Shown here piece by piece: positions 329 through 41,170 of a stretch of DNA of 64,000 bases (its first letter is position 1; each line of letters starts with the position of its first letter). The DNA comes from Lingula anatina (taxonomy: Eukaryota; Animalia; Brachiopoda), in assembly GCA_051362555.1 (NCBI GenBank), contig CM120646.1, positions 24,056,001 through 24,120,000 on the forward strand. Reading direction: 5' to 3'. Both the position numbers and the translations under genes were made by a program. The notes beneath the pieces were generated by a model. The model made no database searches. It worked only from the letters and a program-made list of their open reading frames with translations, and was not told where the DNA came from.

Positions 329-2145
329 CTAAGGGCAAGGACTGTGCTGAGCTGTATAAAGGGGGTATCCGCCGCAGTGGAGTGTACACCATCAACCTCC
401 TAAATGGCGGCGGTGACGTGGACGTGTATTGTGACATGAAAACAGACGGGGGAGGGTGGACGGTAAGCTAGGGGTTGAACACATAGAGTGCAGGTGACGT
501 GGACGTGTACTGTGACATGAAAACAGACGGGGGAGGGTGGACGGTAAGCTAGGGGTTGAACACATAGAGTGCAGGTGACGTGGACGTGCACTGTGACATG
601 AAAACAGACGGGGGAGGGTGGACGGTAAGCTAGGGGTTGGACACATACAGTCCAGATGCCGTGGACGTGTACTGTGACATGAAAACAGACGGTGGAGAGT
701 GGACGGTAAGGTGCGGCTTAGATGAAAAACAATGGTTCTTAAATCCAAACAAGGTTTTTATATGTACAGACTCATATTTATACATCTAGTTAGTGATCCT
801 GTAATTAACCAAAGGATATGATGAATTCTGGATTCTGCTCAAAACGTTCAATGACATAACTTGTGTGTTTTTCACCACATATTGCAATCAGTGGACGTGT
901 CTGCTTGGATGGTGAGCCAGTTGAGTGCTCTCTAGCAGGTGCCCTTCTGGCTGGTACAAAACTGAACCCCAGCTGAGGACGTACTTCTTAGAAGTTTGCC
1001 ACAGCTATAATGAGAACATCTTGTAGAGAGTAAACCACAAATCTATAATATCTTGTGTTTGAATTTTTTTTCAATATAGTGTACAGTGAGTGATCCAAAA
1101 GTCAACCGTGTGTATACATCACTTCCGTGGCATTGTGTGCTCAAAGTTTGACAGAATCTTTGTTTGTTACCAGGTGTTCCAGAGACGTATGGACGGCAGC
1201 GTGGATTTCTACAGAGACTGGGCAGCTTATAAATATGGCTTTGGGAATCTGAACGGGGAATATTGGCTAGGTAGGTGTAAGAATGACAGGCCGTAGCCGG
1301 GGGGGGGGGGGGGGAAGGTTCTTTGGGTTCGAAAGAACTGCCCCTTTTGCTGGGAATAGGTCCATTTCTGGGTAAAATTTTATCTATGTACATGAAGTTT
1401 TTTATGGAAAGGGTCCACTTTTTCAGAAAAAGAACACCCCTTTTGAAATCCCTGGCTACGGGCCTGCTGCTATACCTTTGACTGTCATTCTGTGCTCTTT
1501 TTTAGGAAACAAGTTTATACACCTGTTGACTAACCAAGCCCCTTACGAACTCCGCGTGGATCTGGAGGACGCCACAAGAGAGAAGAGATACGCCAAATAC
1601 GCCTACTTCACTATAGGAGATGAAGCTGCCAAATACCGCCTGTCTCTTGGCACGTATTCCGGAACCGCTGGTAATTTAGAGATTTACTCAGCTGATGCTT
1701 AAACTTCTCAGTGTTAGAATTTTATTCACGTGAATCAGTTCAGGGTCGCGATAGCAAAGCTATGAACGTTCTGTATGTCTCAAAAACTTCAATGAAAAGT
1801 ATGTATATACATGTTAACTCACTGGATATACTCAGTTTGTAATACAGTGTCTCTCTGTGAACTTCAGGGGACGCCATATCTCACCACACAGGTCAGTTCT
1901 TTACCACCAAGGATAACGACAACGATGAGAGTTCAGCAAACTGCGCGGTGAGACACAGTGGTGCGTGGTGGTATGATCACTGCCACGGAGCCAATCTGAA
2001 CGGCCTCTACAAGCTGGGGAACGACAATCCCGCTAAAGCTGAGGGTGTCATTTGGAGCAGATTTAGAGGGTATCTGTCCATGAAGACATCGGAAATGAAA
2101 GTCCGCCCAGTCTTTTTCAGTTCATCTCCTGTCGTGGTTGGTTGA
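329..2145 (+). CDS. Fibrinogen-related domain (FReD) protein, ficolin/tenascin/angiopoietin-like C-terminal domain; 5' part lies upstream of the window
   Basis: GT-AG exons 329-462, 1174-1270, 1506-1670 and 1868-2145 join in frame. Translation includes [80 protein letters not shown]..|..[32 protein letters not shown], which are classic FReD motifs. Stop TGA at 2143-2145; AATAAA at 2431. Confidence 0.95.
412..710 (+). repeat. 81-bp tandem repeat (~3.7 copies) spanning the FReD exon end and 5' splice site
   Basis: Unit GGTGACGTGGACGTG..GGGTGGACG|GTAAGCTAGGGGTTGAACACATAGAGTGCA starts at 412, 493, 574 and 655; GTAAG donors at 463, 544, 625 and 706. Confidence 0.95.
1287..1466. mobile_element. 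Small MITE-like element in FReD intron
   Basis: Imperfect terminal inverted repeats CAGGCCGTAGCCGGG (1287) and CCCTGGCTACGGGCCTG (ending 1466); no clear target-site duplication. Confidence 0.6.
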
Positions 2146-39515: not shown

Positions 39516-41170
39516 ACAGTAAGTCAAGAGTCTTACCATGTCAGCCTGTCTGGCCTCCTCTATATAATGAGTGGTCAACAAGATGGTAGTGTGGCCTGTC
39601 TTGGCTATTTCTAACAGGTGCTCCCATATCCTGAAGATAAATACCACATTACTGTTATATCTATTACTCTGCAACAGGAGATTATATGCATTTCTCTCCA
39701 ACATTTTATTTGAAAAAAATTCACAACCTCACCACACTTACTTCTGCCTCAGCAGGGGGTCTACTCCAACAGTGGGTTCATCTAAAATAAGGAGTCTTGG
39801 CTCATGAATTAGGGCACAAGCAAATGATACTCTTCTTTTCTGTCCTCCACTAAAATTACAAAATTGTTCATATTCATGTAGCAAATTAATAATTGAATTT
39901 CACATTTAATTAATATCTTTATTTAAGCCCAAACAAAAAACAATTATTTTCATCCTTCACTGATATTCCATTCACCCATCAAACACTTAATAAGTCAAAC
40001 AGTCAATAAATTTAATTATCATTTTTATTCTTTATTTTTCTTTTTGTCTATTTTTTGTTTATTGTGTCTCTTATATTTGGTCAAACAATTTTAGTGTGAC
40101 CTTTTTAATCTCCACACACTACCTTAGAGTTTGTATTTGTCTCCCTTTAGATGGGAGGTCCAGAAATTTTACCAAGAAATCGGTTCTTATCACAGCATTT
40201 TCCCTAGACATTCCGAGAATCCTTCCAAAGTAGGCCAACGTTTCTTCAATGGTCAACTTCTCAAACAGCGCTGTGTCCTGGAATGGCAAAAAATGAAAAG
40301 AAAAAAAGGACAGAAAATTCAAATGCAAGATGAGCTCAATCTAGTTTAATATGAAATTGAGTTCAGAAACATATATTTAAAAGCAAAATATCAAAGCTTC
40401 CAAGAATTAATAGGGGGTTGCATATGTATTGGTTAATTGTATGGGAGTAGCTTGTGACTTCTGTGCACATAAGTAAGTTGTATAAGGGGAGTACATTAGT
40501 AATGGTTGTATGAGGGAGTAGCAGAGAAGTCACAGGCTACCCCCCCCCCCCCCCCCCTCTTATACAACACACTTATGTAGACAGAAATGACATTCTCTTT
40601 AAGTACCTGAGGCATGTAGCCAATCAGCTTTCCAGGCACCTCGTGACCTCTGGCCCCCGGCTTTTGACCTAGAACTGTCACATGACCTGCATCCACCTCC
40701 AGACGGCCAACTAGAGCTCGTAATAGAGTGGTTTTACCACTCCCACTAGGACCTAAGAGCCCATAGCTAAAAAACAGAATGATTAACAAATGTTAAAGAA
40801 ATTTATCTTTCTTTACCTGATTACAAATCACTGGCATCAGTGAGGGATAACACAGCAATTAATCAAGTATTGCTTTATTCTGACATAGATAAATGAATGG
40901 CTTCCACACGCTCAGTAAATACAGCTATCATGTCTAGGTAAGCTACTAGTACATCCACACATCTACTCCCAGATTTCAACTACTGCAGTGTTTTTATTCT
41001 AAGGACTACTAGGACAAATTGTCTGATGTTCAAGAGAGCTGTAACTGCTGTCATACTGACATGCATCCCTGTGGTACAGTGAGAGAACAGTCCTGTAAAG
41101 CCTGGACGCCATTTCTCTTGGATCCATATCTCTTGTAGACACTCCTCACTTCTACTGCATCCTGGGCCAT
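26400..41170 (-). CDS. ABCH: ABC half transporter, NBD-TMD architecture, ABCH / 'ABC transporter G family member 20/23'-like, 737 aa
   Basis: Exons 41170-41061, 40766-40607, 40277-40123, 39849-39742, 39630-39537, 38511-38437, 38118-37978, 37670-37526, 37272-37155, 36892-36718, 36460-36357, 36109-36036, 35346-35231, 34879-34809, 34436-34348, 33216-33113, 32616-32457, 27588-27484, 26509-26400 sum to 2214 nt in one open frame. Motifs: Walker [18 protein letters not shown], signature [10 protein letters not shown], Walker [61 protein letters not shown]. Subfamily assignment is by motif resemblance only. Confidence 0.93.
26771..27052. repeat. 45-bp G-rich intronic minisatellite (~6 copies)
   Basis: Unit CCTGAGGGTGGCTGTGGGAGGGAGTAGACAGTGGACTGGAATCAA in the last ABC intron. 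Confidence 0.92.
27537..28659 (-). repeat. 71-bp tandem array containing the ABC splice acceptor plus 52 nt of exon (exon-proximal block, ~16 copies)
   Basis: Minus-strand unit ..ATGTGTATTTCAG|GTATAATATGGCCTCTAGAAGCTATGCCGCCTTGGCTGAGATATGTCAGTAT..; period 71, with a variant unit recurring every 213 bp. Confidence 0.96.
28660..31724 (-). mobile_element. Non-autonomous Helentron/Helitron2-type (HINE-like) element with internal satellite, inserted in the 71-bp array
   Basis: Interrupts a 71-bp unit with no TSD (minus-strand A|T site). One end is CTAG preceded by hairpin GAGGCG-GTAT-CGCCTC; the other is palindrome GTACCGCCAGCG-CTAA-CGCTGGTGGTAC. Asymmetric inverted repeat TTGTACCACCAGC (28695-28707) pairs with GCTGGTGGTACAA (31712-31724). 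GC-rich CCGGCGGAG microrepeat at ~31620-31680. Confidence 0.82.
28845..30725. repeat. 146-bp satellite (~13 copies) inside the HINE-like element
   Basis: GCCAGTATATGAC recurs at 28900, 29045, 29191, 29337 and onward; 292-bp dimer periodicity is visible in ORFs starting 29144, 29436 and 29728. Confidence 0.95.
31725..32380 (-). repeat. 71-bp acceptor-containing array, distal block (~9 copies)
   Basis: Same unit as 27537-28659, resuming in register after the inserted element and ending about 76 nt from the upstream donor at 32456. Confidence 0.96.
32831..33121 (-). repeat. 50-bp tandem repeat (~6 copies) containing an ABC splice donor
   Basis: Plus-strand ACCTTGAAGA at 32861, 32911, 32961, 33011, 33061 and 33111, i.e. 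minus-strand GTCTTCAAG|GTAAATCT; the functional donor is at 33112. Confidence 0.93.
33395..34195. mobile_element. Non-autonomous DNA transposon, 801 bp, in an ABC intron
   Basis: Perfect 13-bp TIRs CAGGGATGCTAGT and ACTAGCATCCCTG, flanked by direct repeat TTATAG (33389-33394 and 34196-34201). Confidence 0.75.
34414..34588 (-). repeat. 88-bp duplication spanning an ABC splice acceptor
   Basis: CACAGGCCATGAAGAATGTAATACTGGAAAA..GTTAGATGAGA at 34414 and 34502; acceptors at 34437 and 34525. Confidence 0.9.
35324..35850 (-). repeat. 53-bp tandem repeat (~10 copies) spanning an ABC splice acceptor
   Basis: Plus unit GATAGACAGGGCTATCTGCTGGTCTAAACACACAATATCAGTATATATGATGT, i.e. minus-strand TGTGTGTTTAG|ACCAGCAGATAGCCCTGTCTATC; the functional acceptor is at 35347. 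Confidence 0.95.
37250..37463 (-). repeat. 54-bp tandem repeat (4 copies) spanning an ABC splice acceptor; in frame
   Basis: Units at 37250, 37304, 37358 and 37412; CCTTCCAG acceptors at 37273, 37327, 37381 and 37435. Confidence 0.93.
38099..38164 (-). repeat. 33-bp duplication spanning an ABC splice acceptor
   Basis: AGAAACACATCTTCCAGAGTCTAGAACAACAAC followed by AGAAACACACCTTTCAGAGTCTAGAACAGCAAC. Confidence 0.88.
38630..39260. repeat. ~67-bp intronic minisatellite (~9 copies)
   Basis: Unit TGTGCTCACATCTCACTCCATATACCAACATCTCACTGGATTATAACAATATTACAAGGTATATATC; does not include a splice site. Confidence 0.92.
39394..39566 (-). repeat. Duplicated ABC exon end plus donor, separated by an (AT)n microsatellite
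   Basis: ..AGTAAGTCCAGATTTTTACTATGTCAGCCTGCCTGGCCTCCTCTATATA versus ..AGTAAGTCAAGAGTCTTACCATGTCAGCCTGTCTGGCCTCCTCTATATA; the ORF track shows YIEEARQAD twice. Confidence 0.88.

Follow-up and report, generated by a model that had tools for sequence, protein, structure and literature searches.

Tandem duplications of the mirage type crowd the exon-intron borders of an ABC transporter gene in the brachiopod Lingula anatina

Minisatellites with units that cross an exon-intron border were named mirages in 2002, after their discovery in the amphioxus gene Adh3. They are described as occurring at both borders, with units that measure 10-160 bp; splicing is regular, length is unstable and the mechanism of origin is unclear. 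They are also present in the globin genes BflGb6 and BflGb9 (PMC3087553), and troponin C (TnC) and PGBD5 were added as mirage loci (PMC3902484). Mirages have been proposed as a route to new introns, as in the model of Rogers, in which tandem repeats at boundaries play this role (both cited in PMC3087553), and in duplicated human genes, new introns are reported to have arisen from boundary repeats (De Grassi and Ciccarelli 2009, PMC2812944). Variable number tandem repeats (VNTRs) at human junctions include the 37-bp repeat in F7 IVS7 and those in CBS IVS13, 6-16 intron 2, LMNB2 and PDGF intron 4; there, the most upstream donor is chosen, and the downstream pseudo-donors, although identical, are mostly silent (Borensztajn et al. 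2006, PMC1557585). Regular splicing despite the arrays is reported for amphioxus Adh3, globin, TnC and PGBD5 and for human F7, LMNB2 and PDGF (PMC3087553, PMC3902484, PMC1557585). Here we analyze a stretch of 64,000 nucleotides of the Lingula anatina genome (assembly GCA_051362555.1, contig CM120646.1, positions 24,056,001 to 24,120,000 of the forward strand; hereafter, the window, with coordinates counted from its first letter), in which nine duplications span exon-intron junctions of three genes, seven of them in a single gene for an ABC transporter. The type of repeat is thus already known, and the Lingula locus is an unusually dense set of mirages in a brachiopod.

Exon models of the three genes were built by hand from the sequence. 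The ABCG23-like ABC transporter gene (26398..41170, minus strand) has 19 coding exons, a CpG-depleted gene body and 18 introns, all of them GT-AG; the coding sequence of 2,224 nt yields a single frame of 737 residues, of which residues 233-578 are identical (346/346) to a partial ABCG23-like protein of Lingula anatina. The fibrinogen-domain (FReD) gene was modelled as four exons in one open frame. The model of the PLC-delta-like gene, for which the exon search matched a Lingula anatina PLC-delta-4-like protein, agrees exon by exon with the annotated protein and includes 17 introns between the main coding exons, a single one of which holds a junction array.

Tandem Repeats Finder (TRF), run on the window, recovered eight of the nine duplications, with periods of 81, 63, 71, 50, 88, 53, 54 and 33 bp. 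The ninth, a 64-bp copy at an offset of 123 with a TA microsatellite between the copies, lies outside the TRF set and was detected by a junction-blind diagonal scan, which found all nine. Each of these duplications, four at donors and five at acceptors, contains the modelled junction. An earlier note, made from the sequence alone, had described nine duplications of unrelated sequence with one junction in each, and this is borne out, as are the periods and copy numbers that it gave for the eight TRF cases and its count of seven affected coding introns among the 18 of the ABC gene (introns 5, 6, 8, 12, 14, 16 and 17). Its statement that only a handful of comparable minisatellites avoid junctions needs qualification: 5-8 comparable repeats lie off junctions (45, 67, 26, 51, 28 and 146 bp, plus two spaced copies), including the 67-, 51-, 28- and 26-bp repeats, which the complexity filter of the diagonal scan had removed and which were restored from TRF.

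Two of the nine are donor arrays on the plus strand. The FReD array (412..710) consists of 3.7 copies of an 81-bp unit with 51 exonic and 30 intronic bases, its first donor following position 462, and the PLC array (16211..16468) of 4.1 copies of a 63-bp unit with 42 exonic and 21 intronic bases, its first donor following 16252. The other seven belong to the ABC gene, on the minus strand. The largest, a 71-bp acceptor array at the border of intron 17 and exon 18 (junction 27588), is divided into an exon-proximal block of 15.8 copies (27537..28659) and a distal block of 9.3 copies (31723..32384); its unit has 52 exonic and 19 intronic bases, with an 8-base overlap. A 50-bp donor array (x5.8, 32830..33121) spans exon 16 and intron 16 (junction 33113), with an exonic share of just ~9-11 bases next to 40 intronic ones. 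The remaining acceptor cases are an 88-bp duplication (x2.0, 34414..34592; intron 14/exon 15, junction 34436; 23-29 exonic and 60 intronic bases), a 53-bp array (x9.9, 35324..35850; intron 12/exon 13, junction 35346; 23 and 30), a 54-bp array (x4.0, 37250..37463; intron 8/exon 9, junction 37272; 23 and 31) and a 33-bp duplication (x2.3, 38099..38172; intron 6/exon 7, junction 38118; 20 and 13). The donor duplication at offset 123 (39380..39566) lies at exon 5/intron 5 (junction 39537). The junctions are supported by RNA reads for the 33, 54, 53 and 123 cases, by annotated Lingula proteins for the 88-bp duplication and the PLC array, by the reading frame and a collinear chiton homologue for the 50- and 71-bp arrays, and by the reading frame only for the FReD array.

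These duplications share the hallmarks of mirages: the 33-88-bp unit crosses the exon-intron border, the splice signal is repeated with it, and the sequence is specific to each locus. In most arrays, the junction lies well inside the unit. Short matching ends flank most of them, namely CGTG (63), GTCWGTAT (71), TGTG (88), TGTRTTT (33), TCTAT (53) and a TA run (123). The inner copies are 93-98% similar (88% in the 33-bp pair), and the distal copies of the 81- and 63-bp arrays are diverged; this combination of alike inner and divergent boundary copies, read from in-register rows, is the pattern of concerted evolution. The proximal 71-bp block has a higher-order structure, with the unit types in the order ABCABDABDABDACB. 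The earlier note had stressed that the extra copies always lie on the intron side. Their position is as stated; it follows from geometry, because any junction-crossing duplication has this appearance if the exon-adjacent site is used, and therefore it is not independent evidence.

Whether the spare splice sites are used was assessed by mapping three of nine RNA runs ascribed to the species, from three studies (X12, X15 and X18; 6-25% of each run was read), and one of ten matching DNA runs (X3) on positions 35870-38620. All six listed exon-exon joints agree with the modelled introns. At the 54-bp array, where the spare acceptors would add 18 residues in frame and free of stops, all 46 RNA joints are at the proximal acceptor, and no reads cover 37342-37525 in any of the three runs. 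At the 33-bp duplicate, 22 RNA joints are at the proximal site; at the 53-bp array, 55 loose-end RNA reads run on into the true exon; and at the 123 duplicate, 19 loose-end RNA reads match the exon copy. No joint at a spare site is listed for these four arrays, the listing being confined to joints with at least three reads, and use of such sites has 95% upper bounds of 5-15%. The read test thus covers one donor and three acceptor arrays, and annotated proteins agree at two more (63 and 88).

We consider that the arrays are probably mirage-type minisatellites, that is, tandem duplications across exon-intron borders that persist as near-neutral passengers ignored by splicing. Under this explanation, a segment of 33-88 bp would first be duplicated between short matching ends; the ends are read directly from the sequence, with slippage or repair mediated by microhomology, and then unequal exchange, as the likely route. 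The copies would then multiply and homogenize, in keeping with the greater divergence of the distal ones. Wholly exonic duplications of coding sequence would be purged, whereas junction-spanning ones would keep one intact site, which by geometry leaves the extra copies in the intron. Splicing would take the first donor and the last acceptor, as the RNA reads show for the four arrays, and near-neutral persistence would follow because the site beside the intact exon is the one used. The ABC gene would, in addition, be a local hotspot for long-period repeats, both junction-spanning and not.

The last point emerges from the placement statistics. In the null model, each array was collapsed to one unit and placed at random, with the exclusion of placements that were wholly coding or crossed two junctions; the junctions in the PLC untranslated regions are partly known, two junction positions are approximate, and the p values carry no correction for a window chosen after the fact. 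Across the window, 8-9 junction cases among 12-17 repeats compare with 1.0-1.7 expected (p 2e-5 or less). The ABC gene, which makes up 16% of the collapsed window, holds 10 of the 14 long-period repeats (p ~5e-6) and three of the five that avoid junctions (p 0.03), so that a large part of the excess across the window reflects the crowding of repeats into this one gene, a hotspot. The control class of repeats off known junctions includes a 67-bp minisatellite in ABC intron 5 (x9.4, 38625..39265) and a 45-bp one in intron 18 (x6.2, 26772..27048), neither assigned to a strand. Within these intron-internal minisatellites, sequences resembling splice sites occur at places with no known exon: the 45-bp unit has CAG-GT (minus strand) and the 67-bp unit AAG-GT (plus strand).

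When placement is confined to the genes in which the repeats reside, the 8-9 junction cases exceed an expectation of 3.1-5.0 (p 0.0004-0.038); for ABC alone, 6-7 compare with 2.3-4.0 (p 0.001-0.11, with 0.055-0.11 in the strictest tests). The junction excess within genes is thus ~1.6-2.9-fold, at p 0.0004-0.11 depending on assumptions. The opinion of the earlier note that chance overlap is unlikely was overstated: inside ABC, where the introns are 250-350 bp long, the chance that an array crosses a junction is 0.11-0.49. A residual, roughly two-fold excess at junctions is probably real.

Several observations weigh against near-neutral passengers as the full account. Neutral placement combined with purging predicts just the 3.1-5.0 of the 8-9 own-gene cases given above, so that this filter alone is probably insufficient. 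Matching 4- to 6-mers at distances of 30-90 bases were counted in seven ABC and 15 PLC introns free of arrays; for 4-mers, the counts per 1000 across junctions and inside introns are 5.8 vs 7.8 in ABC and 4.1 vs 6.1 in PLC, and with microhomology scarcer across junctions, slippage would, if anything, favor intron interiors. Two arrays sit in genes without CpG depletion. The RNA test is shallow and limited to four of the nine arrays, the array alleles of the sequenced animals are unknown, and the libraries are polyA or unspecified, so that decay could hide stop-bearing forms.

The strongest competitor attributes the junction positions to pure chance, given dense repeats in one gene with short introns and a window picked from many. 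The high per-array probability inside ABC, the strictest ABC-only p values and the uncorrected selection of the window all fit this possibility. Conversely, every own-gene variant of the test gives p <0.04, and the PLC and FReD arrays, which are outside the hotspot, are on junctions as well. We regard chance at the junction level as possible but unlikely.

The next alternative is that mutation is targeted to junctions, with splice signals or splicing-coupled chromatin steering breaks or template switches in genes that are transcribed and methylated in the germline. The earlier note had suggested a mutational bias of this kind, possibly coupled to R-loops. The within-gene excess, which the supply of microhomology does not account for, fits such a bias, as does the position of the junction well inside most units; the hotspot, in turn, generates much of the overall excess, and nothing tested points to R-loops. 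Further support comes from hexamers that resemble donors. The ABC coding sequence has only two matches to GT[AGC]AGT, and each coincides with the exonic end of an acceptor array: GTAAGT at the 54-bp array (37250-37257, minus strand) and GTCAGT at the 71-bp array (27537-27544, minus strand), with homology stopping 8 bases past GT in each. The rough probability of this coincidence, noticed after the fact and unexplained, is 1e-4 to 1e-3. In the 71-bp unit, however, the hexamer coincides with the microhomology. Targeting is further weakened by the single array in the 17 modelled PLC introns, by the p of 0.11 under the strictest ABC-only null, and by the reliance on a single window picked as striking; overall, we hold it to be slightly less probable than chance. 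Microhomology supply was also considered as a cause of the junction bias and was rejected, given that in ABC and PLC alike, matches are rarer across junctions than in intron interiors.

The composition of the hotspot gene sets it apart from the rest of the window. The observed-to-expected (o/e) CpG ratio is 0.12-0.18 in the insertion-free stretches of ABC, compared with 0.83 in PLC, 0.65 in FReD and 0.8-0.9 in intergenic sequence; for exons, it is 0.24 in ABC vs 0.85. The depletion forms a sharp domain over ABC (24900-41200), with o/e values per kb mostly of 0.0-0.5, flanked by values of 0.6-1.1. In invertebrates, CpG depletion usually signals germline methylation of gene bodies, and the ABC gene body is probably methylated in the germline. 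Junction arrays are present at seven of 37 junctions in ABC vs two of 45 elsewhere (Fisher p 0.07). Judging from this coincidence in one gene, the hotspot is likely tied to germline gene-body methylation or transcription, which we offer as a lead only. The frequency of matching 4- to 6-mers in ABC is 1.3-1.9 times that in PLC, which does not suffice to explain the hotspot.

The earlier note had also raised the possibility that the arrays are kept as decoys for splicing or as generators of isoforms. A precedent exists in human 6-16 and CBS, where the nearest pseudo-donors are used (PMC1557585), and the units of the 63- and 54-bp arrays would add stop-free residues in frame (21 from the second donor of the 63-bp array). 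The 21 residues are absent from the four long annotated PLC proteins, and the partial ABC protein, which spans the 33, 54, 53 and 88 junctions, has no insertion of unit size. In-frame units are not preferred: four of the eight TRF units are a multiple of 3, close to chance, and the second donor of the 81-bp array would introduce an in-frame stop. The largest array tolerates a 3-kb insertion that resembles a mobile element, and, as noted, no spare-site joint is listed at the four read-tested arrays, the stop-free 54-bp array included. A decoy or isoform function for the spare sites is not supported, and we consider selective retention improbable.

An observation on the side of isoform generation is an alternative PLC microexon of 21 nt (18688..18708, plus strand), which opens with the same 15 bases as the exon at 20125. 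It is included in three of the four long annotated proteins. This microexon is probably an old acceptor-side copy that was recruited as an exon, although its flanks no longer match. A wider search for decayed junction copies, with 76 exon-end comparisons, yielded one convincing additional case, on the donor side of ABC intron 8, and two weak scores in PLC intron 16 that are near the control maximum; the 50-bp array itself failed this comparison, its exonic part being short. The intron 8 case is an 18-base stretch just inside the intron (37481-37498, minus strand) that is a decayed copy (16/18) of sequence close to the end of ABC exon 8, and intron 8 may therefore hold an old donor-side copy besides the 54-bp acceptor array.

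A broader and still speculative scenario, to which we assign about the same low probability as to targeted mutation, is that germline-methylated gene bodies of Lingula are hotspots where duplications nucleate on junctions, with ends set by sequences that resemble splice signals, and supply exon-plus-intron copies for the occasional recruitment of microexons. If so, mirages would be the product of a general mutational process coupled to chromatin or splicing, not an amphioxus oddity.

Finally, an assembly artefact is very unlikely. The units vary in an ordered manner, and an insertion interrupts one of the arrays. In DNA run X3, which diverges from the window by ~1%, one contig crosses the 33-bp duplicate with no deletion, and contigs end at either side of the 54-bp array, the copy number of which is unreadable from short-read contigs. 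No new junction duplication was detected in these contigs over the six introns covered.

The insertion that splits the 71-bp array (28661..31721, minus strand; 3.06 kb) contains a 146-bp satellite in 12.8 copies and has a 3' terminal hairpin followed by CTAG and a short inverted repeat near both ends. Elements of the Helitron/Helentron family are expected to have a 3' hairpin followed by CTRR, subterminal inverted repeats, a T run as insertion site and further copies in the genome. From its hairpin and CTAG end, the insertion is a candidate non-autonomous Helitron/Helentron; no further copy is present in the window. An insertion of ~800 bp in ABC intron 15 (~33400-34200), rich in CpG and carrying an inverted repeat of 12-13 bp close to its ends, resembles a miniature inverted-repeat transposable element. 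The inserted sequences at ~31000-31700 and 33400-34200 are CpG-rich within the depleted domain, which suggests recent arrival. A short dispersed repeat in ABC intron 9 (~36965-37095) reaches a summed contig depth of ~4,400 in DNA run X3 and, in the RNA runs, draws reads that come from other loci.

Elsewhere in the window, the PLC gene likely has an extra 5' coding exon at ~12381-12466 (plus strand, borders approximate), with an 85% match to a 27-residue insertion of the long protein P0128. A tRNA-Arg (CCT) gene (24277-24349, minus strand) lies between the 3' ends of PLC and ABC. An intronless gene (52319-53644, minus strand) encodes an FMRFamide-receptor-like G protein-coupled receptor of 441 aa, for which the named matches among the best 120 of 155 are lophotrochozoan and the best is from Lingula anatina. 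Upstream of it, an intergenic 28-bp minisatellite (x14.8, 54943-55356) yields a spurious repeat frame of 154 aa.

A literature search, with most subscription journals outside it, returned no report of such arrays for Lingula and none of a link to methylation. The locus offers two measurable leads on the origin of mirages, namely, their concentration in a CpG-depleted gene and the donor-like motifs at array ends, as well as a natural setting in which to study how one splice site is chosen from up to 25 near-identical acceptors; the human cases cited here are confined to donors. If the within-gene excess vanishes genome-wide, the arrays are ordinary neutral minisatellites. In practice, such arrays can disrupt short-read assemblies and gene models.

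The comparison with known systems places the Lingula arrays closest to the amphioxus mirages. With the boundary-repeat route to new introns (PMC2812944), the resemblance is limited to the PLC microexon, which looks like a boundary copy turned alternative exon, whereas the nine young Lingula arrays show no new exon or intron, and their genes are not known to be in segmental duplications. The human VNTRs share with the Lingula arrays a first unit that crosses the exon-intron border and the choice of the exon-adjacent donor; however, they are donor arrays, one per gene, whereas five of the nine in Lingula are at acceptors, and the use of the nearest pseudo-sites in 6-16 and CBS has no counterpart at the four read-tested Lingula arrays. 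The amphioxus mirages share border-spanning units of tens of bases, sequences unrelated among loci, spare GT or AG signals, normal splicing, homogenized inner copies with diverged boundary copies, and an unexplained generating mechanism. Unlike these, the Lingula arrays belong to a protostome, a brachiopod, with seven arrays in one gene and one array of ~25 copies split by an insertion.

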